Of a stretch of 64,000 nucleotides of DNA, positions 1 through 30,484 are shown in pieces. Every line of letters starts with the position of its first letter. The first letter of the stretch is position 1. The translations under genes and the position numbers were made by a program. Origin of the DNA: Candidatus Latescibacterota bacterium (lineage in GTDB: Bacteria > Latescibacterota > UBA2968 > UBA8231); the NCBI GenBank assembly GCA_963422735.1, contig OY730476.1, forward strand, positions 3,520,001-3,584,000, given 5' to 3'. The notes under the pieces are model-generated. The model was given only the letters and a program-made list of their open reading frames with translations, did not search any database and had not been told where the DNA came from.

Positions 1-3000
1 TACAACCATCACTCTGGTTGACGCCGACAAGCCAAGTACGGAGATCAATCTCTCGTTCTCTGATACCGATATAAGCAAGAGGGATGGTGCGACCGATATT
101 GTCGTGACGGCTACCTTGAATGGAAAGAAGCTAAAAAAAGACGTGAGTTTTCAATTGATTATTCCTCCTGGAGAAAGTAGCGATACTGGGACGGCGAAGC
201 GCGATATAGACTACTCGGATACGATGGCCAAGATAACCATTCCAGACCGCAAGGTGTCGGGAAAAGCGACGATAACCATCCGTCCTAAGAACGCAGGAAC
301 CGGTCTTATCTGGGTGGGAGCTCCTTCTGACGCCAAGCTAACTAATGACGAAAACAACCCCATAAAGGTTAATTCTAATAAAATCGAGATAACTGGCGAT
401 CCCGCTAAAGAAATTACCGGGCTGACACCGACTCCTTTCTCGATACGCGAGGATGCTGGGGAGAAGAAGATTACGCTGAAAATTTCCTTGCAGAACGCCT
501 TGTTGACTGACGAGACGGTGCAGTTCACTATTGAGGACGACAGCGACGGCCTGTGTGAGGATTCGGATTCCGATTGCCCGTTCTATGGCGCAGTGAATGC
601 ACAGCGCGATGTAGATTATCGTGCGGACGTGAAGCCGCTGATCATTCCGAGGGGCGAGACAGAAGGGACGACGACGATTACCGTCACTCCCATCTCCAAC
701 AAAAAGGAGGATTCTCCGCGGGCCTTCACAGTGAATGCGAGGGTTGGAAGCAACAAACCCTTAAGTGCAGGAATCTTGATTACCGACGACGATACACCAA
801 GCGATTCGATCACGCTAGAGGTGAGTCCGGACGAGATAAACGAGGAAGCGGGGGCGACCGAGGTTACGGTGACCGGCACCTTGAACGGGAAGGAGTTCGA
901 CAACGACGTGGTCGTGTTATTGGTTATCAATGACGATATTAACCGCGATGGGACGGTGGATGACAAGGATAAGGCGGCGACGCGCGATGCAGATTACACT
1001 GCCGACCTTCACCCTTTGGTGATTAAGGGCGGCTCGGTGTCGGGGACGACGAAGATCACCATCACCCCCATTGACGACGACGACGAGGAAGACGACGAGA
1101 AGATCGGCTTGCGGACTCTGGAGTCTAGACCTCCCATAGGCAAAGATGATGACGACCTCGAAGATCTGGAGGTCACCCCCGTGACGATAACGCTGAAAGA
1201 CACCGACGACGAAGATCAACGGCCACAGCCGAAGGATCCGAAGCTCCCGGCCTTCGCCGACAGCGCTGCAGTCGCCAACCAGAAGTACGCGGTTGGAACG
1301 GCGATTGCCGCTCTTGTACTGCCGGAAGCTACGGGCGGCGATGGCGACCTGAGGTACAGCGTCTCGACCCTGCCGAAGGGCCTATCGTTTGACGCGGCCA
1401 CGCGGACGATTTCAGGCACCCCTTCGGAAGCGACGAAAGGCGCGGTCAACATCATCTACACGGTGATCGACGACGAAAAAGACGCCGCCGCATTAACTTT
1501 CTCCATCACAGTCAACGCTGATGAGACGCCGCCGCCCTCCCCAACTGCAGACGCTCAGCTAACGGCGGTTCCTTCGTCGATCCGCGAGGACGCCGAGGAG
1601 ATACAAATCTCGTTGACTGTGGCCTTGGCGGCTCCCAAGAAAATTGCCGAGATAGTGAGGTTTACGCTTGTCGATCCAAGCGAAGGCACGAAGGCCGTGC
1701 GCGATGTGGACTACAAAGCGACATTGGGGAAAGTCGTCTCCATCCCGGTCGGTGATACCGTAGGGAAGACGACCTTCACCATCCGCCCCCAAAACAACGG
1801 TGATAAGGATGGCCCGAGAATGTTAGGTGTGCAGGCTGCGTTCGCATCCGGTGGGACGCTATCGACGAACATCGAGATAGCCGACGACGAAACGTCTAGT
1901 ACATCCATTGCGCTGTCGGTAAGTCCTACGGTGATCGCGGAAGGCGATACGAGCACTGTTAAGGTGACAGCTACGTTGAACGGGAAGCCATTGCAAGAAG
2001 AAGCAATTGTTACTGTATCTATTGATAATGCGTCGACAGCGACGCGCGATGTGGATTACTCCTCCAAGGATTTCAATCCACGGCTTGTGATTCCGGCCGG
2101 AAAGACAACGGGCGCGACGACCTTTACAATCATCTGCTCACCCGACGATATAGCGGAGGGCAACGAGACCATCAAGCTGACCGGTGATTCAGGTCTGGAG
2201 GTTGACGCGGTAGAGATCACGCTGAGCGACCGAGCAGCGGAGGCGGAGGAGCCGGAGGCGGAGGAGGCGTCCCTTGCCTTCCCCGATGACGCTCCAGTTG
2301 ACGACCAAGTGTACACCGCTGGATGGGTGATAGCCGATCTCGTGCTACCGGCTGCTACGGGCGGCGATGGCGACCTGACGTACAGCGTCTCGGCCCTGCC
2401 GAAGGGCCTGTCGTTTGACGCGGCCACGCGGACGATTTCGGGCACCCCTTCGGAAGCGACGGACGGCGCGGTCAACATCATCTACATGGTGATCGACTAC
2501 GAAAAAGACGCCGCCGCGTTAACTTTCTCCATCACGGTCAACACGCCGTTGGAGTTTGATCTGAAAGACTTTTTCGATTTTTTTAGCGGGATGGGCAAGG
2601 CCAACCCAACGTCTGATCCCACGATGTTGGCTGCAATCGACGGCTTCGTCGTTGGCCAGCGCGTGGCGGGTCTCGTGCTGCCGGTGGGTACCGGCGGCAC
2701 CGCCCCGCTGACGTATAGCCTCTCGCCGGGGTTGCCGGCGGGTCTGTCGTTTGACCCGGTCACGCGGACGGTGTCGGGCATACCCACGGCTGAGGGCCAA
2801 CCCGTATATACCTACACAGTTACGGACGCCCACGGCGCGCAGGCGTCGCTTTCGTTGCAGACGCGGCCGACCGCCTTCGCCTTAGCAGATAATTATCCGA
2901 ACCCGTTCAACCCCTCGACGACGATCCGGTATGCGTTGCCGCAGGCGTCGGATGTGGAACTGCGGGTGTATAACGTGGTGGGTCAGGCAGTTCGGACGTT

Positions 3001-3151: not shown

Positions 3152-3178
3152 GCATCCATCCATGCACAGCGCGTTCGT

Positions 3179-3220
3179 GAAATAGGGCCTCAGTTTGATA
3201 TTTGAGGCCCTATTTCTTAT
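3179..3220 (+). terminator. Intrinsic terminator-like hairpin
   Basis: Perfect 14-bp stem GAAATAGGGCCTCA / TGAGGCCCTATTTC followed by TTAT, directly after the stop codon. Confidence 0.75.
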
Positions 3221-3277
3221 CTATTCTATAAATAGCGAGTAATTATCGGGATGCTATTTCTACAAGTAAGGAGTTGA

Positions 3278-11591: not shown

Positions 11592-12333
11592 GGGTAGGGG
11601 TTGTGGTGCGGACTAGGTGGGCGAAGACCGCTTCGAGACCGGCCCCGGGGATGCCGGCGTCTGCGGCCAACTGTTCGACGCGGCCATCGCCGAGCAAGCG
11701 CCCTTGGTGGATGATCAACACGCGGTCGGCAATGGCTTCGACGTCGCCGATGATGTGGGTGCTAAAGAGGATCGCTCGGCCCGAGCTGAGCGTACGCAAG
11801 GTGTCGCGGAAAGCCAGTACCTGCAAGGGGTCGAAGCCGTGAGTTGGCTCGTCGAGGAGCAAGACCGGCGGATCGTGTACCATGGCGGTAGCCAGGCCGA
11901 TGCGCTGCCGGAACCCGGTGGAGCACTCCTTGACGCGCTGGGTAAGCACGTCTTCGAGCCCGCAGAGCGCGACTGCGCGCGCCAAGCTCCGCTGCAAGGC
12001 GTCGCCTTCGAGTCCGCGGGCTTGGGCGATGAAACGGAGGAACTTATCGACGCGCATCTCTTGGTAGAGCGGAGTGTCGCCCGACAGATAGCCGATGCGG
12101 CGGCGCACGGCCAGCGGGTGCTCCACCACGTCGATCCCGTCGATGGCGATTGTGCCGGCCGTAGGGTGGATAAAAGTGGAGAGCATCTTGAGCATGGTGC
12201 TCTTGCCGGCACCATTCGGGCCAACAAAGCCAACGATCTCGCCTTGATCAACGGCGAAGCTGACCTCGTCAACCGCGGTCAAAGTACCGTAGCGGCGGGT
12301 GACGGATTCTACGCGGATCATCTGCGGGTACAA
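11584..12333 (-). CDS. ABC transporter ATP-binding protein, GldA-like
   Basis: Walker A GPNGAGKST, signature-like CSTGFRQR, Walker B LLLDEP, H-loop STH. Confidence 0.93.
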   Translation of the reverse strand: MYPQMIRVESVTRRYGTLTAVDEVSFAVDQGEIVGFVGPNGAGKSTMLKMLSTFIHPTAGTIAIDGIDVVEHPLAVRRRIGYLSGDTPLYQEMRVDKFLRFIAQARGLEGDALQRSLARAVALCGLEDVLTQRVKECSTGFRQRIGLATAMVHDPPVLLLDEPTHGFDPLQVLAFRDTLRTLSSGRAILFSTHIIGDVEAIADRVLIIHQGRLLGDGRVEQLAADAGIPGAGLEAVFAHLVRTTTPTHV

Positions 12334-12747
12334 CTACTGTTTGAATACCCCGCAGCGGAGCATGGAAGCGCCGAAATAGGGATTGGCAATTTGGGACTGG
12401 TCCTTCTGGACCCAGTGCGCTCCCTTATCGCCGTCGGCCATCGGGCAGTACGCCACGACGTAGCCTTTGGGTATCTGGCCCTGCATCAATTCCTCGGATA
12501 GCGGCTTAAACGCCGTGCGCACCGAGGCAAGGTCGGCGGCGCGTGCGGCGTTTTCCGCCAGCGGCTTGAGCGTTGGGCTGGCATTTTGCACCATGCCTTG
12601 CAGTGCTTGGTGCGCCCGGTCTAGATCGTCGTCGGCCAAGGCTTCTTGGGCTGCGACGTAGTGGGTCAGCGCCGTAGGGGCCGGGTCGGGCGAATCACAA
12701 GCCGCGATTGCGAAGGCGATAAGGAACAGACGAGACGGGGAGCGCAT
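12334..12747 (-). CDS. DUF3347-type lipoprotein, putative metal-binding
   Basis: Lipobox IAAC; YCPMA...W.Q....IANPYFG.SML.CG motif. Confidence 0.78.
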   Translation of the reverse strand: MRSPSRLFLIAFAIAACDSPDPAPTALTHYVAAQEALADDDLDRAHQALQGMVQNASPTLKPLAENAARAADLASVRTAFKPLSEELMQGQIPKGYVVAYCPMADGDKGAHWVQKDQSQIANPYFGASMLRCGVFKQ

Positions 12748-12912
12748 TGGGATTTCTCGCGGAAAAGGGTAGTGGCCTGTTTTGAAAATTCAAGTTCATC
12801 ACCGTTTTAGAGAAAAATCGCGTCGGTCTTTCCGGTTTCTTTCTTGCAGCAACGTGAGCTTGCGCTGCAAAAGAACCAAGGAGTAGTCCTATTTTGTTGA
12901 GTAAACCAGTGC

Positions 12913-15445: not shown

Positions 15446-17815
15446 CTACCTGCGGAAGAAGTTGCGGAAGTTGAGTCTTTTGTCTGAGAGACGGCCGGCA
15501 CCGGGCACGTACTGGCCGGTTCGAATATGGTCAATAGCGTACGCCGGGAATTCGACCCTGTACAGGCACTGGCCGCTGATTTCAAAGCCATCCCTCCAAA
15601 ATAAGAAGTCGAAGCTGTCGAAGCCGTATTTGAAGCGGTCGCCTTGGAGAACATTGGCATTGGCGGGATACACATGCACGAAGAACTGAACGTCGGGGGC
15701 TTCGCCTTTCGGTTCCTCTCCGCAGCCGTTCGTACCCTTGTTCACATACAACAGGCTATTCTGAGACCAGTACACGGTGTAGTCAGCGGAGTCTATTAGG
15801 ACGCGAGATTTTTTGCGATGGCTCATCCAATACTCCTGATATTCTGGGTTGGTGGCGGCCACCGTCTCGTACAGCTCGGCAAGTGCTCCGTGGATGAGCC
15901 AGTTTTCGGGTTCGCTCCGGACGGCTTGGGCGGCTTGGGCATCCACTAGGGCGAGCAGCTTCTTCGCCTCATTCCGGTGCATATAGATCCTTTGCCATTG
16001 CAGCACCACATTCTCGAAGAGAAGGGTGCGCGGGAGATTCGCCAGCGGCTCGAACTCGGCTGTGAGCCATTCGAAGTGTTCGACGACCTGATCGATGGTC
16101 TGATCTTCCACGCTCATAATTTCGTTCAAGCCGCTGGCCGTGGAGTGAATCGAGTGGTTGGCGTTCAGCCCTACTCCAACCAGCCCCACTGCTGCTAAGG
16201 CGAGAACAGCGCGGGCCCAGTGCCCGACGGCGACCTTTCGGCCAAGCCGGTCGATCCGAGAGGAAATCGACAGTCGAATCCAGCTCTTCTCGCGGCTATT
16301 CTGCGCTTCTAGGTTGGCGACGAAGGCGAGCAGTAGAATGTATTGCAAGGAGCCAGTGGTGGTGTCGAATAGGACCTGTTTTTGCACGAAGTATCCTGCC
16401 AGTGCCGCGCCCACAAATAAAATCAGGGTCTGGTCCTTGGATTCCGCTCCTTTGGCGGCGCGCAGCGCGGCGTAGAACAGGAATCCCCATAAGGCGAGAT
16501 ATCCGAGCAGACCAAGCGTTCCTGTCGTCGCAAGTACCTCGACGAGCTTGGCGTGTGCATAGTCGTGAATCTCTATGTCGACCTCTCCCTTGATATACCG
16601 GCCGAAGACGACAATGAAATTTTCCGGCCCCCAGCCGAGCAGAGGCCTGTCGGCGAAGCCCGCGAGGCCCGACTCCCAGGCCACTATGCGGGCACTAGCA
16701 CTCTCAGCGGCAGTTCGCTTGGGTGCATTTTCGTATGAGCCTACTCTGGACGCGACCATTTTCCCCAAGCGCTTTAGCAATACATTCGAGGATGATCTCA
16801 GATCGCCAAACGGCAGAGACAGAATCAATGCCAGCAGGATCGCGCAGCTAAGGAAACCTGTCGCACCATCAGCGACGCGCTGCACAGGTCTCGAGTGCGC
16901 TAGGTACGAGTACGCCGCTGCCAGAAACGCCAAGGCCATGCCGAGACCGGCGAGTCCCCCTAACGAGCCACTCAGGAAGAGGACCCACAGGCTGAGCAGG
17001 GCCGTGGTCCCCCAGAACAGCCTCGCGGCCCAAAGCATGTCGGGAGAATTCTTTCCGGCTGGCGGTACTTGTTGTCGGCGTCGTTTGCCGCGTTTTTCGG
17101 GCAAAGGTGCCGGCGCGGTCGGGGCCGCGGGAACGAACGACCGCGCCAAGAACCCGACGGCGACCACGAGGTGTACTAGCATGTACGCGCTGAGGTAGGT
17201 TGAATTGCCGAGGGTACCCAATGCCCGCCTATCCATATCGAAGCCGGGGGGCGGCCTCTGCGTCGCCGGGATATCCGGGTAGATCACCAAAATATCCGAG
17301 TAGAACGGCAGACGCACACCGTGGTTGAGCGCGATGACTAGCAGGGCCATGGCCAGGCCGCCGCCGAGATTGAGGTTTAGCAGCAACCGCCACTGGCTCG
17401 GCGTGCGGACCACGGATACCAGCACGACAGCAAGCGCGAACCAGTGCGCCTGATCCACCAAGCCCTGCATCCGTTCATAATTCGACCACAAGCTGCGCTG
17501 CATGCTGACGCCGAAACATGCCGCCAGCACCGAGATGCCCAGCACGACGGCGAGCAGGATCAACAGCCGGGAGCGCGGCGGTCGATACGCAGGATTGAAC
17601 AGGGCCAGTAGGGCCCAGCAGCCGACGACGATCTCGATCAGCGTGCGCGAGAACAGGGCCTTGCCGACCACAAAGGGAAAAATGGTTTCGGGCGTGACGA
17701 TAAAGGGCGTGACGAGGATCAGAGCGAAGCCCGCCCAGACGACGGCGAGCAGGACTTGCTCCGGCCGGCGAAGCGAGGCCGCCAGACCAGAGCTGTGTTT
17801 AGTCGTGGTTCCCAT
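15446..17815 (-). CDS. O-antigen ligase (Wzy_C) family protein with TPR-like region and extra C-terminal domain
   Basis: Many TM helices; SNYERMQGL, RALGTLGN, ARIVAW...DRPLLGWGPENF, DYAH motifs. C-terminal FFVHVYP...GFDSFDF...C...IRTGQY domain. Confidence 0.82.
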   Translation of the reverse strand: MGTTTKHSSGLAASLRRPEQVLLAVVWAGFALILVTPFIVTPETIFPFVVGKALFSRTLIEIVVGCWALLALFNPAYRPPRSRLLILLAVVLGISVLAACFGVSMQRSLWSNYERMQGLVDQAHWFALAVVLVSVVRTPSQWRLLLNLNLGGGLAMALLVIALNHGVRLPFYSDILVIYPDIPATQRPPPGFDMDRRALGTLGNSTYLSAYMLVHLVVAVGFLARSFVPAAPTAPAPLPEKRGKRRRQQVPPAGKNSPDMLWAARLFWGTTALLSLWVLFLSGSLGGLAGLGMALAFLAAAYSYLAHSRPVQRVADGATGFLSCAILLALILSLPFGDLRSSSNVLLKRLGKMVASRVGSYENAPKRTAAESASARIVAWESGLAGFADRPLLGWGPENFIVVFGRYIKGEVDIEIHDYAHAKLVEVLATTGTLGLLGYLALWGFLFYAALRAAKGAESKDQTLILFVGAALAGYFVQKQVLFDTTTGSLQYILLLAFVANLEAQNSREKSWIRLSISSRIDRLGRKVAVGHWARAVLALAAVGLVGVGLNANHSIHSTASGLNEIMSVEDQTIDQVVEHFEWLTAEFEPLANLPRTLLFENVVLQWQRIYMHRNEAKKLLALVDAQAAQAVRSEPENWLIHGALAELYETVAATNPEYQEYWMSHRKKSRVLIDSADYTVYWSQNSLLYVNKGTNGCGEEPKGEAPDVQFFVHVYPANANVLQGDRFKYGFDSFDFLFWRDGFEISGQCLYRVEFPAYAIDHIRTGQYVPGAGRLSDKRLNFRNFFRR

Positions 17816-18061: not shown

Positions 18062-19447
18062 TCATCTCTTGGCCCCGAGCCCCAGCGCGGACCGGCCTGC
18101 GGCCCACAGGAAGCTGGCGTCGTTGCGCCGCGGCAGCCAGACCGAGGACCAAGCCATTCGAGTCCCTGTGTGGAACGCGATCGCGAGAAGGAGGAAACGG
18201 CACAGCATGCCGAAGGTCATGGCCCAGGCGGCCGCTTCGACTCCGAGCCCTGGGTACAGCGCGAGAAGCGCGCAGAGATTGACGCAAAGCCCTAGGAAAA
18301 CCGCACACGAACAAACATGGGGCAGGTTGGTGCCCTTGAAGTGGGTCATGAATATCCCGGAGAGGGCGTATGCCAGTATGCCGGGCGCGATGATCCACAG
18401 CAACGGGACGGCCGGCAGGAAGGCTTCGGAAAGCGCCAGACGGACCAGCGGTGTGCTGAGCGCGAGAAAGGCGAGGAGGGGAACGACAGTTGCTACGCCG
18501 ACCAAGCGCAGGCAGAGTGCTACCAGCTCGGTGCGCTCTAGGTAGGCGACTCGGGGGAACAAGGCGCTGCCGATGGAATTGGAGACTAGGTTGAATCCTA
18601 GCATCAGCGTGCTGACTGCGGAGAACAGCCCGATTTCGGCTGTGCTCGCGAGCAGTCCCAGAACCACCACGCTGCTCTGGAACTCGACAGCGCTGCCGAC
18701 GCTGGCAGGATGATATTTCAGGCCGTAGCCGACAATACAGGTGAAATGCCGGCGGCTGGGCCACTCCAAGGTCAGCCCACAGTGCCGCCGCAGGTAGAGC
18801 AGGCAGACGGCGAACATGAGGCCGCGCGCGGCGGCGAAGGCGATGACGGCACCATTGACCCCCAAGCCTAAGTGCCAGACGAAAACCAGAATCATTAGCA
18901 CATTCGCCGCGAGGCGGAGCAGTGCCAAGAAAGACAGGCACCGGAAGCGCCGGAGCGCGACCAACTGGTGATCGAGTGCCAGGGAGAGGACCGTGAGGGG
19001 AATCAGCAGGAGGGACAGCAAGAAGGAGGGAGTCTCCGCCTGCTGGAAGAAAGCGATCTCGCTGTGGATGAGCGGGATGGCCAAGGCCGCGGCCAAGCCG
19101 CCCCCGACAAGACCGATCATCAGGGCGGAGGACACCGCTTGCGAGACGCTCATCTGCCTAGCCGCGACGAAATACTGTGCGCCCTGTAGCGCACCGGGAG
19201 TAAACAGCAGCCCGAACAAAGTCCCAAACGCGATGCAGACCGCATAGGCACCCCTCCCTTCAGGAAGGAGCATATAGGCGAGAATCCCCTGAACCAGAAG
19301 AGTCAGAGCGGCCGTGCCGACTAGGGTGGCAAACATCACGGACACGTCCTGCCCGCCGGTGGTGTCCGGGACTTTCAGCGCATCTGCCGCTCTTGGCTGC
19401 GATTCAAAGGTGCGCTTGAAAGGGGGTTCAGTTGGGGGAGCAAGCAT
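18062..19447 (-). CDS. Wzx-type oligosaccharide flippase
   Basis: About 12 TM helices; LLPEGRGAY, GLFS.......FPRVA, FLPAVPLLWIIAPG. AAGGA RBS before ATG at 19447. Confidence 0.85.
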   Translation of the reverse strand: MLAPPTEPPFKRTFESQPRAADALKVPDTTGGQDVSVMFATLVGTAALTLLVQGILAYMLLPEGRGAYAVCIAFGTLFGLLFTPGALQGAQYFVAARQMSVSQAVSSALMIGLVGGGLAAALAIPLIHSEIAFFQQAETPSFLLSLLLIPLTVLSLALDHQLVALRRFRCLSFLALLRLAANVLMILVFVWHLGLGVNGAVIAFAAARGLMFAVCLLYLRRHCGLTLEWPSRRHFTCIVGYGLKYHPASVGSAVEFQSSVVVLGLLASTAEIGLFSAVSTLMLGFNLVSNSIGSALFPRVAYLERTELVALCLRLVGVATVVPLLAFLALSTPLVRLALSEAFLPAVPLLWIIAPGILAYALSGIFMTHFKGTNLPHVCSCAVFLGLCVNLCALLALYPGLGVEAAAWAMTFGMLCRFLLLAIAFHTGTRMAWSSVWLPRRNDASFLWAAGRSALGLGAKR

Positions 19448-19455
19448 ATAAATCC

Positions 19456-20460
19456 TTACTTTGTAAGACGCCCCGGCCAGAAGAAGCCAAACCCCCAGCA
19501 CAGATGCATGACTGCCAGAACTAGCGGAAGCAGTGCGGCCGCCGAGTCACCCCGCCGACATCCCACGATCGCAGACCCAACCACGAGCATCGGAACGTAA
19601 GCAGACAGCAGTGCGGCCAGCAGCCACGGGAAGCCGACCGCCGCCAGCACCGCCCCGGCCGTTAGACCCAGCGCCAGACCGGGAGCGGCAAGCTGTCGGG
19701 GTTGAACCGACCCCGGATGCTTCATAAGCACCACCGACTTCCATCGACCATAATCGAAGTACTGCCGCGCCAGCGCCCAGAGCCTGCCTCGGGGCCTGTA
19801 ATTCACCACCAGTTCGGGGTCGAACCATATAGTCTTCCCGCGCTTTCGCAGTCGGTAGTTGAGTTCGTAGTCCTGGTTTCGGGTCAGGGTGACGTCATAG
19901 CCCCCTATCTCGTCCAGCGTCTCCCGTCGGAACGAACCGAGGAATGCAGTATCGCTGGGTCCCTCCTCTCCCCCTAGACGATGGCGAGAATTGCCCACCC
20001 CCAGCGGCGTGGTCATGGCTATTGCCACGGTCCGCTCGAAAAAGGTGATTCCCACCGCTTGCTGACGGCCGCCCACATTCGCGGCCCCGGTTCGCTCCAG
20101 CGTTTCTACAGCGCGGCCCACGTACTCGGGCGGAAACACCGTATGCGCGTCACATCGCACCACGATGTCTCCGGTCGCCACCCGAAACCCGGCGTTGCAT
20201 CCGTAGCCGAGCGTTTTTTCCGGGTTGGGAATCAACTTCACTTGCGGGTAAGAGCGGCGGATAAGATCGGACATGGCGGGGGTATCGGAGCCATCGGCGA
20301 CTATGATCTCTATCCCTCCGGCATAGTCTTGGGACAACAGCCCATCGAGCGCGGAGGCGATAGTCGCTTCCGAGTTGCGGGCTGGAATGATGACCGATAC
20401 GCTGGGGAGATGAGAGGAGGAGCCACCAGATATCGAGGTCTGTCGATTCGAAGTGCTCAT
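19456..20460 (-). CDS. Glycosyltransferase family 2 (ExoA-like)
   Basis: VSVIIPARN, IIVADG, RCDAH, RNQDYELNYRLR, QYFDYGRW; C-terminal TMs. Confidence 0.9.
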   Translation of the reverse strand: MSTSNRQTSISGGSSSHLPSVSVIIPARNSEATIASALDGLLSQDYAGGIEIIVADGSDTPAMSDLIRRSYPQVKLIPNPEKTLGYGCNAGFRVATGDIVVRCDAHTVFPPEYVGRAVETLERTGAANVGGRQQAVGITFFERTVAIAMTTPLGVGNSRHRLGGEEGPSDTAFLGSFRRETLDEIGGYDVTLTRNQDYELNYRLRKRGKTIWFDPELVVNYRPRGRLWALARQYFDYGRWKSVVLMKHPGSVQPRQLAAPGLALGLTAGAVLAAVGFPWLLAALLSAYVPMLVVGSAIVGCRRGDSAAALLPLVLAVMHLCWGFGFFWPGRLTK

Positions 20461-20544: not shown

Positions 20545-23500
20545 TCATCGGCCAGGTTTACGCGGGGCTAGGGACAGACGTTGCGCGGAAGGTTCGCCAC
20601 CCGCACCCTCAGACCCCAGCGCACAGCTCAGGCCGGCCAGAAACATGAACGCCCCGAAGGTGAGCAGATCATGATAGTTTACGCCAAACAAGGCCATGAT
20701 CACCGCCCAGCCGACGGCGACATCTCGCGCTAGGGAGCGCGGCGCGGTCCAGCGCAGTCGGAGTAAAAAGAAAAGAAACAGGCAGTAGAGCACCAACGGC
20801 GCAATGCCGGCTTCGCCGAGCAGCATCAGGTACAGATTGTGGATGCCCTCCGGGGATCCCTGCGCATTCTTCAGGTTGCCGGCGAGGCTCTGAGCCGTCG
20901 CCAGACCGCTGCCGACGAAAGGCGATTCTAGCCCCTCTTCGAGGTACTCCTTCCAAATGGAAAAGCGACGAGATGTCAGCACGGCGGTCTGGAGGCTGAA
21001 GTTGTTGCCGGTGAGGCGCAGCGCGAGGTCCTCGCGTATCAGCTCGGGCGGAAAGGGGTCGGTCAGCAGGTTGCTTTCAAGTGCCAGCGTGTTCAGATTG
21101 ACCAGTCTGTCTAGCTCCGGCGGGACGGTGCCGGTGAGTTGGTTTCGGCTCAGGCGCAGCGTGACGAGCTGATCCAAACCGCCGAATTCCGGGGGAATGC
21201 GGCCGTTTAGTCCCTGCTCCGCCAAGTCCAACCTGACCACCTGCCCTGTGCCGCCCACAGTGACGCCCTGCCAGAAGCCGATGGGAACGTACACGCTCCA
21301 GTTGAGGGGCTGGTCGCCGGCTATGATGTCTCTGGCCGTTAGCAAAATCTCGCAGTCGGCCAGCAGGCCCGAGCTAATGGTCGTATGCGAGTCCAGACAC
21401 AACGTTTCGTTTGTCAGGTCTTGGCCGGCAATGCCGAACAGCGCCAACGGAGAGGGGCCAGTCAGGTCGTTGTCCGCCAGCCACAATCCTTGGAGCTTCT
21501 CCAGCTTGCCCAGCTCGGGCGGGATGGTGCCGCTCAGGGCGTTGGTAGTGAGCGACAGTACCTGCAAGTTGGCCAGCTTGCCCAGTTCGGGCGGAATCGG
21601 ACCGGTCAGCCAATTGTTAGCTAGGCGCAGTAGGACAAGCTGGTCGAGGTCGCCAAGCTGCGGGGGAATGCGGCCGTTCAAGTCCATCCCCGGCAGGTTC
21701 AGCGCGACCACCCGTTCTGATGGGCTGCCCACGATGACGCCTTGCCAAGAACCAATGGGAATATCCTCGCTCCAGTTGAGGGACTGGTCGCCAGCCAAGG
21801 CGTCTCTGGCCGCCAGCAGCACATTGCAATCGGCTAGCAAGCCCGTATTGACCTGCCCTACCTGACAGAACGTACCGCGGGCGAAGTCGGATTTGACAAA
21901 CTCCACCCCTGTCAGCGAGCTGCGATGGGGATCTCCAGTTATGAGGCCGAAGGCCTGCCCCCCGAAGGCTTCTAGCTTGGGCGGAACGGAGCCGGTCAGG
22001 CGGTTTTCCGCCAACCACAAGTCCGTGAGCTTCTCCAGCTTGTCCAGTTCGGGCGGGATGGTGCCGCTCAGGACGTTGGCACCGAGCGACAGCACCTGCA
22101 AGTTGGCCAGCTTGCCCAGTTCGGGCGGAATCGGACCGGTCAGCCGATTGGTGGCCAATAACAGCAGGGTGAGTTGGTCGAGGTCGCCAAGCTGCGGGGG
22201 AATGCGGCCATTCAAGCCCATCCCCGGCAAGCCCAGACCGACCACCCGGACCGGGGGTACATTGCCCACGATGACGCCCTGCCAGAAGCCAATAGGGATA
22301 TCCTCGCTCCAGTTGAGGGGCTGGTCGCCAGCCAAGGCGTCTCTGGCCGCCAGTAGCACATTGCAATCGGCGAGCAAGCCCGTATTGACCTGTCCTACCT
22401 GGCAAAACAGGTTTTCGGCAGAGACGACTTCGATATTAGCAGACGCGGGCAGGGGAATCCGGAGCCGCTCGGCACCAGCGGCGACATCGACTTCAGTCGG
22501 TTCCCGCAGGGGAATATAGGGCTGCTTGGCAACAACGGTGGCATCGACTAAGGGGGCAAATTTTTCCAGCGCGGGCGGGAGAGTTCCGGTCAGGTAATTG
22601 TTCGCCAGCCACAGGTTTTTGAGGTTTTTCAGGTTGGCTAACTCGGGCGGGAGAGTTCCGGTCAAGTGATTGTTGGTCAGGCGCAGCGTTGCGAGTTGGT
22701 CGAGGTCGCCAAGCTGCGGGGGAATGCGGCCGTTCAAGCCCATCCCCGGCAGGCTCAGCTCGGTCACCCGCCCCTGCGGACCGTCCACGCGAACACCCTG
22801 CCAGACGTCGATGGGAACGACTCTGCTCCAGTTGAGGGGCGCGTCGCCGGCTAGGGTGTCTCTGGCCCCCAGCAGAATCTCACAGTCGGCCAGCAGACCC
22901 GGGCTGGTCTGCGGCAGCGGCAGGCAGAACTCGAAGCGGTTCAGGTCGCGACCCAGGGTCAGATCGCGCAGCGGCCACAAGCCACTGGCTACGGTCGCGT
23001 ACCAGGCAGAGCCGACTAGGCCCATAGCAACCGAACCGAGGAAAAAGAGGTTCCATTTGCGCCCGCCATTGCACAGCGGTAGGAAAACCAGAATCCCGCA
23101 CACCACCAAGAGGGCGGTTCTGGAAAACGACACCATGGCCGCGACACAGCCCACGGCCAAGCCAAAATAGCCGAACCTGCCCTGCCTGCTGTGCGCCAGC
23201 AGTGCCAGCACCAGCACCACTGTCATGCAGCCTATGAAGCCCGCGTCATTCGGGTCGGTGAAGGCGCCGCTCAAGCGAAAGGGCAGTCTGAAGGTCAGCA
23301 GTATGTCCCAATAACGCAGCAGCGGCGTGGCCAGCACGACGAGACAGCTTGCGAGCAGGATCGCCAGCACCCCCTTGAGCAAGGACTCGGCTCCGGTTCG
23401 CGCCAGAATCATGCGGCCGCCGAGCAGGGCCGCCAGCAGCACGAGGAGGAAGAAGATTTGGCGCAGGATGTCTTTGCCCGTAGCCAGCCGCCATTGCGCG

Positions 23501-23829
23501 TCCGTGATGAATAAGGCAGCGGTGCCGATGACCAGATAGGCCGCTATCGCGGCGCAGATCAATACGCCGGGCGTTTCCAGTATCTCCTGCCATCGGGTGC
23601 CGCTCAGACCCAGCAGGATCAGACAACAGACGAGCATGAAGCCGTAGCCGACCTCCCGCATCGCCGGCATCCCCCATAGATGCAGCCAGTGCAGATTGAC
23701 CAGAACGATGGCGGTTAGCCCCCAAAAAGCGTATGGGGCTAACCGGAGCCAGGGAGGCTCGGGGTGCCGCCCCGACGATCCGGCACCCCGGATCCTGAAG
23801 CGTTTCTCTTTCGGTCGGTCGGGTGTCAT
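20545..23829 (-). CDS. O-antigen ligase/polymerase (Wzy_C) with four inserted plant-type LRR modules
   Basis: N-terminal TM region with RLSGAFTDPNDAG and SFSRTA. Four C..GLLADC..LL.ARD.LAG...LNW...WQGV caps, each followed by LxLxxNxLTGxIPPELG repeats. C-terminal R..IW...PFVGSG...HNLYLMLLGEAG plus TMs. Confidence 0.85.
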   Translation of the reverse strand: MTPDRPKEKRFRIRGAGSSGRHPEPPWLRLAPYAFWGLTAIVLVNLHWLHLWGMPAMREVGYGFMLVCCLILLGLSGTRWQEILETPGVLICAAIAAYLVIGTAALFITDAQWRLATGKDILRQIFFLLVLLAALLGGRMILARTGAESLLKGVLAILLASCLVVLATPLLRYWDILLTFRLPFRLSGAFTDPNDAGFIGCMTVVLVLALLAHSRQGRFGYFGLAVGCVAAMVSFSRTALLVVCGILVFLPLCNGGRKWNLFFLGSVAMGLVGSAWYATVASGLWPLRDLTLGRDLNRFEFCLPLPQTSPGLLADCEILLGARDTLAGDAPLNWSRVVPIDVWQGVRVDGPQGRVTELSLPGMGLNGRIPPQLGDLDQLATLRLTNNHLTGTLPPELANLKNLKNLWLANNYLTGTLPPALEKFAPLVDATVVAKQPYIPLREPTEVDVAAGAERLRIPLPASANIEVVSAENLFCQVGQVNTGLLADCNVLLAARDALAGDQPLNWSEDIPIGFWQGVIVGNVPPVRVVGLGLPGMGLNGRIPPQLGDLDQLTLLLLATNRLTGPIPPELGKLANLQVLSLGANVLSGTIPPELDKLEKLTDLWLAENRLTGSVPPKLEAFGGQAFGLITGDPHRSSLTGVEFVKSDFARGTFCQVGQVNTGLLADCNVLLAARDALAGDQSLNWSEDIPIGSWQGVIVGSPSERVVALNLPGMDLNGRIPPQLGDLDQLVLLRLANNWLTGPIPPELGKLANLQVLSLTTNALSGTIPPELGKLEKLQGLWLADNDLTGPSPLALFGIAGQDLTNETLCLDSHTTISSGLLADCEILLTARDIIAGDQPLNWSVYVPIGFWQGVTVGGTGQVVRLDLAEQGLNGRIPPEFGGLDQLVTLRLSRNQLTGTVPPELDRLVNLNTLALESNLLTDPFPPELIREDLALRLTGNNFSLQTAVLTSRRFSIWKEYLEEGLESPFVGSGLATAQSLAGNLKNAQGSPEGIHNLYLMLLGEAGIAPLVLYCLFLFFLLRLRWTAPRSLARDVAVGWAVIMALFGVNYHDLLTFGAFMFLAGLSCALGSEGAGGEPSAQRLSLAPRKPGR
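21480..22405 (-). repeat. Near-identical LRR module duplication (modules 2 and 3)
   Basis: ~22020-22405 and ~21480-21868 share long identical DNA tracts, e.g. CCTGCAAGTTGGCCAGCTTGCCCAGTTCGGGCGGAATCGGACCGGTCAGCC. Confidence 0.85.
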
Positions 23830-24005: not shown

Positions 24006-24815
24006 TTAGCAAGTGGCGCTGGCGCGCCAGCCAATGATCGAGGCGACCGGGCAAGTCCCGATAGCGTTTTCCACGCTCCGCACCAGGCCTACTCGGCAAC
24101 GAAAGTGCCATCGGGGAATCCCGACCACGGCGCGGAGGCGTCGGAAACCGATGTCGCGGAACATGGTCTCCACCTCGCCGTAGGTGTACTCTTTCAAGTG
24201 AAATCCGGTCGCAATGGTATCGAAGTATCGTGAAACGTCACAGGGACCGCGGAGCCGATTCGGCGTACTACAGAAATAGTGCCCGCCAGGCTTGAGCACC
24301 TTGTAAACATTGTGAAAGTGTTCTACGGAGTCGTCGGGATGCAAATGCTCCAGAAGCTGATCGCTGAAGGCAAGGTCGATGGTCTTCGGCGGAACCGGGA
24401 TGCTGACGCCATCCGAGAGCACGAATTTCAGATTCCCCTCCGGGGCCGCGCGTGATCTCAAAGCAAAGGTCACATCAACGGCATAGACCTGCCTGACGCG
24501 GTTCGCAACGCGCCGGCTCAGGGCACCTCCACCCGCCCCGATTTCCAAGAAGGTCATATCGGGCCCAAGCATGGGTTCGAGCCAGCGCATTTGCCCAAGC
24601 ACGTTCCGGCGCTCCACGTCCGGGTTGTCCCGCTCCAGGACCTGGGGATGATCGGGAACACGGGCAAATAGCTCATCGTACACGGCTGAATAGAGCACCC
24701 GCCGTTCCGGCTTGCTCGCGTTCTTAAGTTTGGTGGCAAGCACTTTTTCGATCTCATAGTGCTCACGGATGTGGTCCTTTGATCGTTTCTTGGTAAAATA
24801 GTTAGGGAATATCAT
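24006..24815 (-). CDS. Class I SAM-dependent methyltransferase
   Basis: FLEIGAGGG motif I, VYAVD, LLEHL, VLKPGG...STPN. Confidence 0.88.
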   Translation of the reverse strand: MIFPNYFTKKRSKDHIREHYEIEKVLATKLKNASKPERRVLYSAVYDELFARVPDHPQVLERDNPDVERRNVLGQMRWLEPMLGPDMTFLEIGAGGGALSRRVANRVRQVYAVDVTFALRSRAAPEGNLKFVLSDGVSIPVPPKTIDLAFSDQLLEHLHPDDSVEHFHNVYKVLKPGGHYFCSTPNRLRGPCDVSRYFDTIATGFHLKEYTYGEVETMFRDIGFRRLRAVVGIPRWHFRCRVGLVRSVENAIGTCPVASIIGWRASATC

Positions 24816-25925: not shown

Positions 25926-26044
25926 GCTCCAAGTTCCTAAGCTCAGTTCTTTCCTATGTGATTAACTGACGTTACAGTAGTTTGTCGCGGACGAACCAGT
26001 CCATGCGGGTGGTCCCAACCGGTGGCCCCCCGGCTGGATGTCAC

Positions 26045-26148
26045 GCCTAAACCAAATCTACCAAGCCCTGCATCCGTTCATACATTCGACTAGCTGACGC
26101 CGAACATGCCGCCAGCACGACGGCCAGCAGCACCCAGCAACCGCCAAA
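26045..26148 (-). pseudogene. Remnant of O-antigen ligase paralog (second fragment)
   Basis: CCAAGCCCTGCATCCGTTCATA is identical to ~17458-17479. Encodes VLLAVVLAAC/FGVS*/YERMQGLVD with frameshifts. Confidence 0.75.
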
Positions 26149-26653
26149 GTACCGGCGTCTTACGTGTGCTCCGACCGCATGGATTTTTCGGGGGGGGGTA
26201 TAAGTAATTATTTTTATTTAACTTATGGCGTTTTATTGGCTTGCCGCCGGCAGAGGCTTCATCGGCCTCGAGAATGCCGTGTAGCAACCTAGCCCCGGGC
26301 GGGGTACGGAGGCGATGCTGCATGGAAAGGGCTATCTGGTGGGGCAAATCAAGAAAGCGGGCAAGCTCGTAGCTGGAGAGACTTTTCTTGGCATTGACCA
26401 TCAACCCGATAGCCATAAGCCATTCTTGAAGGGGTGCCTTTGTTTTGCTTAGGACGGTACCAGATAGCACATTAAAACTTGACCGACAATCGCGGCAATT
26501 CCAACGGCCCACGCGGTTGCCATCTATCTTTCGCTCTACTTTCTCGCTTTCGCAATGCGGACAAGTAGTAATGCCACCCCAACGAATCTCTTCAAGATGG
26601 GCAATGCAAGCTTCTTGGCTGAGAAAGAGCGAAAAGATGGTACTCAAATTCAT
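26149..26653 (-). mobile_element. Truncated IS1595-family transposase
   Basis: CIAHLEEIRW...CPHC...WNCRDC..FNVLSGT zinc ribbon, HTH (LSSYELAR), GILEADE...GGK. The DDE C-terminal part is missing. Confidence 0.8.
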
Positions 26654-26714
26654 GGTTTAGCCCCCCCTGACTATAGGTATAAGATAACTCATAGCCTTCG
26701 GCAGTGTAAAGCCC

Positions 26715-26826
26715 ATAAGCTGCTATTCCGACCGCCAATGATCTCGATCCGTGTGCGCGAGTACAGTGCTTTGTCGGCCACGAAGAAAAAAATGGTTTCG
26801 GGCGTGACGAGGATCGGAGCGAATGC
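26715..26826 (-). pseudogene. Remnant of O-antigen ligase paralog (first fragment)
   Basis: FAPILVTPETIFFFVADKALYSRTRIEI matches FALILVTPFIVTPETIFPFVVGKALFSRTLIEI at ~17620-17730. Confidence 0.78.
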
Positions 26827-26980
26827 ATGAAGAGGGGCGTCCGAAAGCCCCTGAGCACATTCTTGCTTCAGTTCATCAAGCTCGAAACCCTGAAAACTAT
26901 CTAGTGCATATATTTTCCTCGGGATCCCGATCCTATCCACGTACCGGGCCATCATAATCGACGTTCCGCACCTCGCCGGG
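26827..26980 (-). pseudogene. TylF/MycF-like O-methyltransferase fragment
   Basis: ARCGTSIMMARY....PRKIYALDSFQGF resembles the TylF GxS...RxxxxFDSFxG motif. Fragment only. Confidence 0.5.
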
Positions 26981-27031
26981 CCGCCGATGTCGTCTCCTTG
27001 AATCCACTATCGACCCGTCCTTTAACCCCCA

Positions 27032-29932: not shown

Positions 29933-30484
29933 ATGACAATTGTCGAACATATTGCCACGGCGGCGGACTTGGAGCGACTACCGGACGATGGGTTTCGCTA
30001 CGAATTAGTGTGTGGGGAGGTGCGTAAGATGACGCCAGCGGGCAATGAACACGGAAGAATCGCCGCGTTAGTAACGGCATCGCTAGTACAGCACGTGCTG
30101 GCCAACCGACTCGGATCAGTGTATGCGGCGGAAACGGGTTTCCGGCTGGCGTCGAACCCGGATACGGTGCGGGCACCGGATGCGGCTTTTGTGTGCCAAG
30201 CGCGGCTGGATGCGGTGGGCGCGGTGGCCGGCTATTGGCCGGGAGCGCCCGATTTGGCGGTGGAGGTGGTCTCGCCCGGGGATCGCTACGGGGAGGTCTC
30301 GGAAAAGGCGGCTGCTTGGCTGGCGGCTGGGACGCAAATGGTGGTGGTCGTCGAGCCGCGGCAGCGCACGGTGGCGGTGCATCGCGTTGACAGTGCCATT
30401 CGCACCTTGGGAGAAGGCGATGTGCTGGAGGGAGGGACGGTGGTACCGGGGTGGGCCGTGTCGGTCGCGGCGTTGTTTACCTAG
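29933..30484 (+). CDS. Uma2/DUF820 family endonuclease-like protein
   Basis: RYELV.G, P...HG, VRAPDAAFV, APDLAVEVVSP. Confidence 0.9.
   Translation: MTIVEHIATAADLERLPDDGFRYELVCGEVRKMTPAGNEHGRIAALVTASLVQHVLANRLGSVYAAETGFRLASNPDTVRAPDAAFVCQARLDAVGAVAGYWPGAPDLAVEVVSPGDRYGEVSEKAAAWLAAGTQMVVVVEPRQRTVAVHRVDSAIRTLGEGDVLEGGTVVPGWAVSVAALFT

Follow-up and report, generated by a model that had tools for sequence, protein, structure and literature searches.

Leucine-rich repeat modules within the periplasmic loop of a predicted WaaL-fold glycan transferase from a Candidatus Latescibacterota bacterium

Why would an enzyme related to O-antigen ligases carry plant-receptor-type repeats inside its catalytic loop? 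This question is raised by one gene in the window, i.e. the whole 64,000-nucleotide stretch of contig OY730476.1 analysed here. The gene is one open ORF encoding 1094 aa (P0001), in which four modules in tandem, each a Cys-paired cap followed by 3-4 leucine-rich repeats (LRRs), lie between the two halves of a membrane core. Both this anatomy, a WaaL-fold core with LRR modules in a loop, and the family assignment can be stated with near certainty. The parts are as follows.

20545..23829, minus strand: whole ORF P0001, 1094 aa, WaaL-like core divided by four LRR modules
22978..23829, minus strand: N-half, aa 1-284, Arg/Lys-rich cytoplasmic N-terminus and nine membrane helices
22927..22977, minus strand: linker from helix 9 to the first cap, aa 285-301, low model confidence
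22555..22926, minus strand: module 1, aa 302-425, cap (C302, C316, W343-Q-G-V) and 3 LRRs
21955..22404, minus strand: module 2, aa 476-625, cap (C476, C489, W516) and 4 LRRs
21448..21867, minus strand: module 3, aa 655-794, cap (C655, C668, W695) and 4 LRRs, 81% identical to module 2
20995..21399, minus strand: module 4, aa 811-945, cap (C811, C826, W853), 3 LRRs and a partial repeat
20806..20994, minus strand: periplasmic catalytic segment, aa 946-1008, with R955-x-x-I-W, P970-F-V-G-S-G, H997-N-L-Y-L and G-E-A-G
20545..20805, minus strand: helices 10-12 and cytoplasmic C-terminus, aa 1009-1094, with the stop codon

The original prediction of a 1094-aa ORF with an LRR insert inside a Wzy_C-type enzyme is borne out, with the four modules running from 22926 down to 20995 (predicted ~22930-20997). 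The collection's gene call for the same gene (P0002) is 1038 aa long and starts 56 codons further downstream. Since homologues align 5' of this shorter start, across membrane helix 1, the 1094-aa ORF is favoured. Four runs, each from a separate coded study, supply Logan contigs that tile the gene with 100% identity. The junction between the C-half and the LRRs is spanned by X1 record 2 and X6 record 18 (20626-21589) and that between the N-half and cap 1 by X6 record 21 (22875-23137), so both junctions are confirmed in runs of several studies.

The Pfam family Wzy_C (PF04932) has a gathering cut-off of 31.7 bits. A scan of the whole of P0001 finds the C-half only, at 25.0 bits, and the C-half scanned alone scores 31.7 bits, exactly at the cut-off. 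A six-frame search gives two partial matches within the one ORF, profile positions 2-64 at 22975-23163 (20.6 bits) and 78-149 at 20782-20985 (29.8 bits), the insert interrupting the profile. The insert-free proteins P0259, P0256 and P0258, with 46-48% identity to P0001 over both halves, each show a single contiguous match (43.0, 56.6 and 49.1 bits). P0001 thus belongs to Wzy_C. The P0001 model (mean pLDDT 77.7; relative module placement unreliable, with a pTM of 0.50 and linkers below pLDDT 50) superposes on WaaL 7tpj_B with Z 21.2 and rmsd 4.5 over 355 of 403 residues (model 27..1078), and contains the 12 helices and periplasmic helical segment of the WaaL-type fold. Insert-free P0259 reaches Z 22.2 (Foldseek E 1.4e-6), and the next-best membrane folds for P0001 are FtsW (Z 14.6) and RodA (Z 13.6 and 13.1). 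P0001 shares 13-17% sequence identity with the WaaL structures, and no PDB match was found by sequence, even at E <= 10. Profile and superposition together confirm the WaaL/PglL-family enzyme that had been predicted, and the model shows a 12-helix inner-membrane enzyme of WaaL fold with an intact and conserved core.

As described in the available text of PMC3643930, R215, R288 and H338 are required in E. coli WaaL and conserved in PglL. The N-half of P0001 contains RLSGAFTDPND (R185, periplasmic) and SFSR (aa 235-238), and the C-half (aa 946-1094) contains R955..W959, P970-x-x-G-x-G, H997-N998-x-Y-L and GEAG, followed by three helices. An hhalign comparison of non-significant score (E 0.07) places WaaL R215 on S-x-S-R and R288 on R-x-x-L-W, pairing them with R238 and R955 of P0001; H997 corresponds to H338 by motif order alone. 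With that reading of H997, all three residues of the WaaL/PglL signature are present. R955, W959, G973, G975, H997 and N998 are invariant in 8/8 aligned sequences, the R238 position varies across the family in this alignment, and conservation of H997 and R955 among 37 sequences is 90% or higher.

An assembly chimera, or a decayed gene with an enzyme inactivated by insertion, could be suspected from the whole-protein Pfam scan, which detects half of Wzy_C under the cut-off, and from an IS1595-type zinc-ribbon ORF 2.3 kb upstream. However, contigs from independent runs bridge both junctions, and the same split with both halves recurs in 52 of 264 proteins, many on megabase contigs. The reading frame is uninterrupted, GC content stays level across the insert (0.62-0.64), the catalytic residues are retained in the family, orthologues are conserved along their full length, and the core fits WaaL as well as that of P0259 does (Z 21.2 vs 22.2). 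Chimera or decay is hardly credible, and an assembly artefact is rejected on the bridging contigs and the recurring split core.

The short loops of P0001 hold 13 K/R in 54 'in' residues versus 4 in 54 'out', predicting cytoplasmic termini and an insert in the large loop on the periplasmic side, after helix 9 and ahead of the helix with the conserved Arg. This charge bias, the Cys pairs and the large loop preceding the Arg/His segment agree with the extracytoplasmic, catalytic-loop position first proposed for the insert. The genome of the bacterium itself encodes Omp85 outer-membrane machinery. Because P0001 is anchored in the inner membrane of a cell with an Omp85 outer membrane, the array faces the periplasm and not the cell surface or host. 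LpxC, LpxB, WaaA (PF04413) and LptD gave 0 matches in this genome (single contig, 95% complete), LpxC was found in 0/41 genomes of the class, and the control genomes were detected as expected. As no lipid A genes were found, a classical LPS ligase role would be impossible for P0001. WaaL function as an LPS O-antigen ligase was accordingly rejected, and the earlier assignment as an O-antigen ligase/polymerase for LPS does not stand. Nor does the suggested coupling to a host signal fare well: direct sensing of host proteins is unlikely for a periplasmic array, while small diffusible ligands are possible. Having Omp85 while its lipid A pathway went undetected makes the lineage interesting to envelope biology in its own right.

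Each cap follows the pattern C-x(12-14)-C and continues into a W-Q-G-V strand, at aa 343, 516, 695 and 853; the insert has exactly 8 Cys, two per cap. The LRRs are 24 aa each with the tail L-T-G-x-I-P-P-E-L and number 3, 4, 4 and 3 in modules 1-4. Module 2 as a query retrieves the other three modules with E values of 1.4e-69, 2.7e-42 and 1.8e-39 (81, 61 and 59% identity). LRR_1, LRR_4 and LRR_8 all exceed their Pfam cut-offs in P0001, and LRRNT_2 (PF08263) is unlisted for the whole protein (E <= 0.1) and for module 2 (E <= 1), so that of the anticipated split of Wzy_C around LRRNT_2/LRR_8 the divided Wzy_C and LRR_8 were found and LRRNT_2 was not. In structure comparisons, the best matches of a module are ERL1, PSKR, PGIP, SERK2 and BIR2 (28-37% identity), confirming at the level of fold the predicted plant-receptor type. 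Module 2 (model 487-629) superposes on ERL1 with Z 19.0 and rmsd 2.1 over 141 residues at 35% identity, and a module on PGIP with Z 16.6 and rmsd 2.0 over 140 residues. For ERL1, PGIP and SERK2, the superposition of cap and repeats on the N-terminal cap has an rmsd of 2.0-2.5, and among the Foldseek matches listed for the whole model, all are plant LRR ectodomains. The cap therefore has the plant-type fold and not the LRRNT_2 sequence profile, as the structures superpose while Pfam misses it.

Peptide-hormone receptor ectodomains and co-receptors (ERL1, PSKR, SERK2, BIR2, SOBIR1) being the closest structural matches, and the array directly adjoining the catalytic segment, the LRRs might sense small periplasmic peptides or metabolites, possibly host-derived, and so switch glycan transfer. 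We regard such ligand gating as very unlikely. The cell has Omp85 and the array lies in its periplasm, a module number varying from 0 to 9 is unusual for an allosteric sensor, and the core works without a switch, since insert-free paralogues exist and are conserved.

The original prediction held that this architecture was not known to be described, and literature searches for a WaaL-type core with inserted LRR modules likewise found no description. It is not a one-off, though: the split core is common to 52/264 proteins examined, in which the modules number from 0 to 9 and keep to this one loop throughout, and the gene occurs with a GT4-GT2-Wzx cassette in MAGs labelled as 14 different lineages, including Gammaproteobacteria, Alphaproteobacteria and Dehalococcoidia. 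Among the window's own relatives it is rare (2/40). Module count shifts fast between close relatives, with pairs of 2 and 4, 3 and 4, 7 and 8, and 5 and 6. In four 4-module orthologues, the modules are gap-free and 63-79% identical, compared with 61-74% for the membrane parts and 24-52% for the linkers. P0001 thus belongs to a family with 0-9 LRR modules at one site that is horizontally mobile along with a compact cassette for glycan synthesis, made up of GT4, GT2 and a Wzx flippase and frequently joined by a methyltransferase. In the window, the neighbours are:

15446..17815, minus strand: second Wzy_C protein, 789 aa, sequence unrelated to the LRR form
18062..19501, minus strand: Wzx-type flippase (Polysacc_synt), member of the conserved cassette
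19456..20460, minus strand: family 2 glycosyltransferase, member of the conserved cassette
24006..24815, minus strand: SAM-dependent methyltransferase, directly upstream of the P0001 gene
24846..25925, minus strand: GT4-type glycosyltransferase (Glycos_transf_1), member of the conserved cassette

The nearest Atlas clusters of the 789-aa protein are Wzy_C proteins, some with TPR families in 12-60% of their members. GT1, GT2 or Wzx relatives adjoin the gene in 11/20 loci. Differently armed paralogues share one cassette as tandem copies in L010 and L013, which also encode PMT_2 proteins, one with TPR repeats; in L018, a 2017-aa form lies beside insert-free P0259. The 8 annotated related loci yielded neither Wzz nor Poly_export nor Bac_transf, and the window cluster yielded no Wzz; elsewhere the genome has one Wzz (3.3 Mb away) and one Poly_export gene. 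No obvious candidate target protein, pilin included, adjoins the P0001 gene.

Somewhat short of even confidence, we favour P0001 as an en-bloc glycan transferase of PglL-like action whose LRR array docks acceptor proteins. The cassette would assemble a short lipid-linked oligosaccharide, Wzx would flip it, and the Wzy_C core would move it en bloc onto an acceptor held by the array beside the active site. P0001 would then act as a PglL-type O-oligosaccharyltransferase with its target range set by the LRR modules. The acceptor would not be LPS core, as lipid A pathway genes were not found in the genome; periplasmic or secreted proteins are the likeliest. Several differently armed paralogues per cassette fit one donor with several acceptor specificities. 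Selection of glycosylation targets by the LRRs, as proposed in the original prediction, is thus the best-fitting mechanism, which we infer from these features. LRRs also bind peptides, lipids and sugars, which counts against acceptor docking. That the cassette lacks Wzz and export genes says little here; the genome has one of each elsewhere.

The same neighbourhood may be read differently. With a Wzx flippase and two glycosyltransferases adjoining the gene, the setting is that of a classical Wzy, and a Wzy-type polymerase of the Wzx/Wzy pathway, with the array replacing Wzz as a scaffold or ruler for the growing chain or as a recruiter of export partners, is a rather unlikely alternative. Chain length or reach would then depend on module number, which changes rapidly between close relatives, and the cassette contains no Wzz. 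The gene is also the sole recognisable Wzy_C gene in most related loci, and one nearest Atlas cluster is auto-named 'polymerase' (lead-level score 0.86). Still, one repeat unit does not readily account for tandem paralogues with different arrays on a single cassette, the modules are conserved position by position among orthologues, as for specific binding and not for a spacer, and the conserved Arg and His-Asn motifs match the description of WaaL and PglL in the available text of PMC3643930. The same text holds WaaL, PglL and Wzy not to be distinguishable from sequence, and fold comparison cannot separate Wzy from WaaL, because no solved Wzy is among the structure matches listed.

A ligase whose acceptor is neither protein nor lipid A, for example peptidoglycan or a different glycolipid of the outer membrane, with LRRs binding that acceptor or its carrier, is decidedly unlikely. 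The lineage has an outer membrane, and lipid A genes were not found in it; a different lipid has to make up the outer leaflet and might be the one that is glycosylated, and the core fold is nearest to a lipid-glycan ligase. However, peptides and proteins are the usual ligands of plant-type LRR modules. Members of the family are also present in MAGs labelled Gammaproteobacteria, Alphaproteobacteria and Dehalococcoidia, whose envelopes differ so greatly that one lipid acceptor for the whole family is improbable.

Extended to the family, protein docking would amount to a mobile, modular protein-O-glycosylation system in which one cassette serves several WaaL-fold transferases, with targets programmed by LRR number and identity (0-9). 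We consider this possible, with considerable doubt. If true, such enzymes would, in outer-membrane symbionts without lipid A, choose the envelope proteins bearing the host-facing glycan coat. How bacterial O-linking glycan transferases choose their acceptors is poorly understood, and the P0001 family is a natural experiment with one catalytic core and 0 to 9 separable modules at one site. Should the modules set acceptor choice, they would give a handle for finding substrates and a template for engineered targeted glycan transfer. Eukaryote-like repeat proteins and surface-glycan genes, both hallmarks of host-associated communities, are joined here in one polypeptide across many lineages.

Compared with the solved WaaL of Cupriavidus metallidurans (PDB 7TPG and 7TPJ) and with E. 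coli K-12 WaaL, P0001 has the same 12-helix fold, periplasmic helical segment, cytoplasmic N- and C-termini and motif order (S-R, then R-x-x-x-W, then H-N). It differs in the about 660 aa of LRR modules held in the loop, and genes for the WaaL acceptor, lipid A-core, were not found in its genome. The O-linking oligosaccharyltransferases PglL, TfpO (PilO) and PglS work in organisms or at loci that have nothing to do with LPS. Their donor is a lipid-linked oligosaccharide that a few glycosyltransferases build and a Wzx-like flippase flips, and the same gene set is present here; unlike in these systems, no pilin or obvious target gene adjoins the P0001 gene. To our knowledge, their known members have no separate protein-binding domain. 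They are Wzy_C proteins like P0001, and PglL has the same three conserved residues as WaaL in the available text of PMC3643930, which gives the PglL_A motif (PF15864) as setting PglL apart from WaaL. PglL_A, drawn from proteobacterial PglL only, was not detected at E <= 1 in either P0001 half or in P0259, P0256 and P0258, in a search whose HMMER filters drop many weak matches. Wzy O-antigen/EPS polymerases share Wzx and glycosyltransferase neighbours and, in many cases, Pfam Wzy_C with P0001, whose cassette differs by having no Wzz/export partner and whose loci can hold several differently armed paralogues. A single module corresponds to the N-terminal cap plus the opening repeats of plant ectodomains (ERL1, PSKR, SERK2, BIR2/3, SOBIR1, PGIP). 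Unlike their one long solenoid, P0001 has short 3-4-repeat modules, each with its own cap, joined by flexible linkers, with the Cys pair at the start of the cap helix and LRRNT_2 unmatched; unlike plant receptors, it has no kinase, and a bacterial membrane enzyme anchors each end of its array. According to the available text of the preprint 10.1101/2020.04.19.049825, TfpW of Pseudomonas aeruginosa is an O-oligosaccharyltransferase that resembles TfpO and PglL to a limited extent and whose TPR domain, in the periplasm, is proposed for protein or sugar binding. This makes TfpW a precedent for the favoured acceptor-docking mechanism. Like TfpW, as described there, and the PMT/TPR-type GT-C enzymes, P0001 is a membrane glycan transferase with periplasmic repeats; those of TfpW are TPRs at the C-terminus, whereas those of P0001 are LRRs inside the catalytic loop.

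P0001 is a single open frame of 1094 codons on the minus strand (window 20545-23829). The hydropathy scan and the predicted structure place nine membrane helices in aa 26-283 and three in aa 1009-1077, with a soluble stretch between them. The limits found here for the insert, 22926-20995, agree with those of the original prediction (about 22930-20997). Four modules make up this insert, starting at C302, C476, C655 and C811, each with a C-x(12-14)-C pair, an 18-residue helix and a W-Q-G-V strand followed by 24-residue repeats of the pattern L-x-x-L-x-L-x-x-N-x-L-T-G-x-I-P-P-E-L (3, 4, 4 and 3 repeats in modules 1 to 4). The insert contains exactly eight cysteines, two per cap. Module 2, used as a query, matches modules 3, 1 and 4 with 81, 61 and 59% identity (E 1.4e-69 to 1.8e-39). 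On the DNA level, the module copies are only 65-81% identical and are therefore old duplications; recent recombination among them was rejected for the same reason. The database's shorter call of this gene, P0002 (1038 aa), begins 56 codons later, which would remove the conserved first membrane helix (window 23662-23829).

The gene lies within a single 4.95-Mb contig, with a flat GC content across it. The gene is tiled without differences by Logan contigs of four runs, one from each of four studies; the best-matching run is possibly the source sample of the assembly, and the other runs are independent. No run carrying the gene is listed as RNA, although one may be. The junction between the C-half and the LRRs is bridged by record 2 of run X1 and record 18 of run X6 (20626-21589), and the junction between the N-half and the first cap by record 21 of X6 (22875-23137). 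A misassembly or chimera is thus not borne out. None of the Logan contigs listed spans the whole gene, since repeats break short-read contigs.

A Pfam scan of the whole protein returned strong LRR families and detected Wzy_C in the C-terminal half only (aa 951-1016, profile 80-149; 25.0 bits, cut-off 31.7). The C-half alone reaches 31.7 bits to Wzy_C, while the N-half alone gave no match in the Pfam scan. In the six-frame family search of the genome, both Wzy_C halves were found in the P0001 frame, profile positions 2-64 at 22975-23163 and 78-149 at 20782-20985, as expected for a Wzy_C domain split by an LRR insert. NCBIfam gave nothing near any cut-off: the XopAC, XopAE and XopL matches are LRR-only and far below theirs, and PEP_O_lig_1 scored 16.5 bits against 188. 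The predicted split Wzy_C identity is settled by three shorter, insert-free relatives (P0256, P0258 and P0259; 436-459 aa), which are 46-48% identical to P0001 over both halves, carry 30-84 residues at the site where P0001 has about 660, and give a contiguous Wzy_C match of 43-57 bits.

Ten residues are invariant in an eight-sequence alignment (R185, N194, S236, R955, W959, P970, G973, G975, H997 and N998), and R955 and H997 are at least 90% conserved across 37 sequences. According to PMC3643930, R215, R288 and H338 of E. coli WaaL are functionally important and conserved in PglL as R224, R298 and H349, and simply comparing sequences does not separate the two enzymes. When the profile of the insert-free family is aligned with E. 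coli K-12 WaaL, the alignment, non-significant alone (E 0.07), places R215 on S-x-S-R (R238 in P0001) and R288 on R-x-x-L-W (R955). Judging by motif order and the expected distance, H997-N998 would be the equivalent of WaaL H338. The insert enters the periplasmic domain at its N-terminal edge, between helix 9 and the Arg helix, and R955 and H997 therefore stay contiguous.

The predicted relationship of P0001 to WaaL is visible among solved structures by fold comparison only, as a PDB sequence search with the insert-free profile A3 returned no chain at E <= 1 or at E <= 10. For the predicted structure of P0259 (pLDDT 83.7, pTM 0.86), the top match is the WaaL O-antigen ligase (Foldseek 7tpg_B, E 1.4e-6; VIA-align 7tpj_B, Z 22.2, 363/403 residues), with the SEDS polymerases FtsW and RodA well below it (Z 12-15). 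The full-length P0001 model (pLDDT 77.7, pTM 0.50) also has 7tpj_B as top match (Z 21.2, rmsd 4.5, 355/403 residues) over model residues 27-1078. The two halves, predicted originally to be a ligase core, therefore rebuild a complete WaaL fold in the model, with the array looped out. In Foldseek, only plant LRR ectodomains appear among the matches listed for the full-length model and the membrane core is hidden; it was recovered by VIA-align.

In VIA-align, single modules superpose on plant ectodomains over their N-terminal cap and first repeats, the best example being ERL1 (Z 19.0, rmsd 2.1, 35% identity), along with PSKR (Z 16.9), PGIP (Z 16.6) and SERK2, BIR2, BIR3 and SOBIR1 (Z about 15-16). 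The description of the modules as plant-receptor type suits their fold and repeat consensus but does not extend to the cap profile, as Pfam LRRNT_2 matches neither P0001 nor module 2. The short loops of P0001 contain 13 K/R in 54 'inside' residues versus 4 in 54 'outside' residues. Based on this bias, the predicted topology is N-in and C-in with the same 12 helices as WaaL, and the 725-residue loop, including the LRR insert, lies outside and not in the cytoplasm.

Among 264 fetched proteins, both membrane halves were matched in 52. By a cap profile built from P0001, these carry 0 to 9 caps, every cap lying between the two halves: 0 caps in 8 proteins, 1 in 4, 2 in 14, 3 in 2, 4 in 9 (P0001 and P0002, the same gene, both counted), 5 in 2, 6 in 3, 7 in 1, 8 in 7 and 9 in 2. 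Lengths range from 425 to 2058 aa, plus one fragment of 276 aa. Across the 43 module-bearing members, W-x-G-[VI] is present in 177/179 caps and the Cys pair, by the pattern used, in 133/179, with a median cap-to-cap spacing of 173 aa. Two members of the family, P0261 and P0262, have about 166 aa inserted at this loop site, without a cap or LRR match; the site appears, from these sequences, to tolerate insertions in general. A representative-protein search with whole P0001 gave 86,585 matches at E <= 0.001, dominated by LRR proteins, and added only P0123 and P0124 to the family. In the protein Atlas, no cluster with the P0001 architecture was found (best score 0.86, lead level only).

In an unrooted tree of the membrane parts (50 rows, leaving out P0002 and the fragment P0263), six 4-module proteins including P0001 form one clade (SH-aLRT 99), neighbouring 1-module and 0-module forms. 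Another group with good support (n=33) comprises the 2- to 9-module forms. Module number changed at least 18 times on this tree, and very close pairs differ as 2 versus 4, 3 versus 4, 7 versus 8 and 5 versus 6. In the 4-module clade, module order is collinear and the modules match the enzyme in conservation (63-79% identity, versus 61-74% for the membrane parts and 24-52% for the linkers), a pattern indicating specific binding surfaces under selection and not spacers. The alternative ranked second, a Wzy-type polymerase with the LRR array as scaffold or ruler, is to be weighed against this pattern; it seems rather unlikely, even with a Wzx flippase gene close by.

The cap+LRR module was also found in 105 fetched proteins without a Wzy_C core (572 caps), often fused, according to precomputed Pfam lists, to reprolysin-like peptidase, FN3, Calx-beta or Ig-like domains. 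It looks like a widely reused extracytoplasmic building block. In the window's own genome, the only other site at E <= 1e-10 is G000:C1:3412660-3414003 (-), one open frame of 814 aa with six module matches.

A scan of species-representative genomes yielded 20 loci, all in MAG records, whose lineages are the title labels of those records: Binatia, Pseudomonadales, Nitrospirales, Entotheonella, Gammaproteobacteria, Longimicrobiales, Gemmatimonadota, Latescibacteria, Alphaproteobacteria, Thermodesulfobacteriota, Vicinamibacterales, Bryobacterales, Dehalococcoidia and Paracoccaceae. Several of these lineages characteristically occur in sponge microbiomes. MAGs with the labels Binatia and Pseudomonadales contain the closest relatives (66-68% identity). 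Within the window's class, an N-half relative occurs in 2/40 other genomes, 1/24 in the genus and 1/12 in a second family; two loci of G018, a genome of the window's genus, are 100% identical to the Latescibacteria-labelled locus L010, which gives the genus of the window this label as well. In 11/20 loci, a relative of the window's GT4, GT2 or Wzx is found within 8 kb (41-72% identity), and in a Dehalococcoidia-labelled MAG all three are 66-68% identical to the window's. The patchy presence at home, the closest relatives under other phylum labels and the common cassette indicate that the LRR-Wzy_C gene has spread horizontally with its cassette.

The window's cluster, all on the minus strand, has the order GT4, methyltransferase, LRR-Wzy_C, GT2, Wzx and a second Wzy_C gene. 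The following features lie in and around it:

15446-17815, minus strand: second Wzy_C protein of 789 aa, two genes downstream of P0001 (Wzy_C at aa 271-440, 53 bits)
26090-26653, minus strand: IS1595-type transposase zinc-ribbon ORF of 187 aa, directly upstream of the glycan cluster
29933-30484, plus strand: Uma2-family endonuclease gene, near the IS1595-type ORF
104-3151, plus strand: protein of about 1000-1100 aa with He_PIG and FlgD_ig (Por_Secre_tail 27.1 bits, cut-off 27)
3278-6571, plus strand: protein of about 1000-1100 aa with He_PIG, FlgD_ig and a Calx-beta match (Por_Secre_tail 27.6 bits, cut-off 27)

The GC content dips to 0.51-0.55 around window 26000-27000. The last two proteins could be type IX secretion cargo; both matches to the C-terminal sorting domain are marginal, and no stretch passes the cut-off alone.

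The 789-aa protein shows no BLASTP similarity to P0259 (E 0.99), and a recent duplication as the origin of the two Wzy_C genes was rejected on that ground. In the Atlas, the clusters nearest to it consist of Wzy_C proteins, several of them with TPR repeats. The C-terminal 130 aa of this protein are found again close to the LRR gene in the related loci L003 and L010. No initiating Bac_transf, Wzz or Poly_export was found in the window cluster nor in the eight related loci annotated. Elsewhere in the genome, a single Wzz and a single Poly_export lie at 0.21 Mb, and a third, ordinary Wzy_C lies at 4.69 Mb with the only Bac_transf next to it.

Six Omp85-family matches were found in the genome, and none for LpxC, LpxB, WaaA or LptD; a search of 41 genomes of the class, including many single contigs of 93-99% completeness, found LpxC in none. 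The lineage looks to be outer-membrane-bearing without lipid A. With these four proteins unmatched, there is no lipid A-core for WaaL-type ligation, and the proposed role as an O-antigen (LPS) ligase was abandoned. Ligation to another envelope acceptor, ranked third, would keep the WaaL-like fold and do without lipid A; we consider it improbable. Given an inner-membrane anchor in such a cell, the LRR array would face the periplasm and not the surroundings. A ligand-gated enzyme, ranked fourth, would have its sensing confined to that compartment and is the least probable of these readings.

Several family members beside one cassette are often seen in related loci. L010 (7983-16677) has two 1-module members of about 590-615 aa, about 81% identical in DNA, with an AAA-ATPase/PD-(D/E)XK gene between them; an ordinary Wzy_C gene and a PMT_2 + TPR protein come next. 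L013 has two tandem copies, then two ORFs of similar size without a Pfam match, and also a PMT_2 protein. In L018, a 2017-aa many-module member (74-6127) occurs with the insert-free P0259 (436 aa, 11559-12869) and with GT2 and GT4 genes. Differently armed transferases beside one cassette are what an acceptor-selecting enzyme would look like, which favours P0001 as a putative transferase that moves a glycan en bloc onto protein acceptors held by the LRR array. We put this reading first, tentatively and at somewhat less than even confidence; a single donor pathway would then serve several transferases distinguished chiefly by their binding arrays.

The WaaL/PglL fold, plant-type LRRs in bacteria and glycan transferases with repeat domains are known parts. 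As originally supposed, no description of the combined architecture was found in a literature search conducted mostly at title and abstract level; as far as could be seen, LRR-Wzy_C proteins are common in metagenome protein collections, yet uncharacterised. New, as far as found, is a variable LRR cassette array in the Wzy_C catalytic loop, spread with its donor cassette over many lineages. A preprint (10.1101/2020.04.19.049825) describes TfpW as a pilin O-oligosaccharyltransferase with a periplasmic TPR domain. On that description, TfpW is a precedent for a repeat-bearing glycan transferase, but it belongs to another GT-C family and its repeats are TPR.
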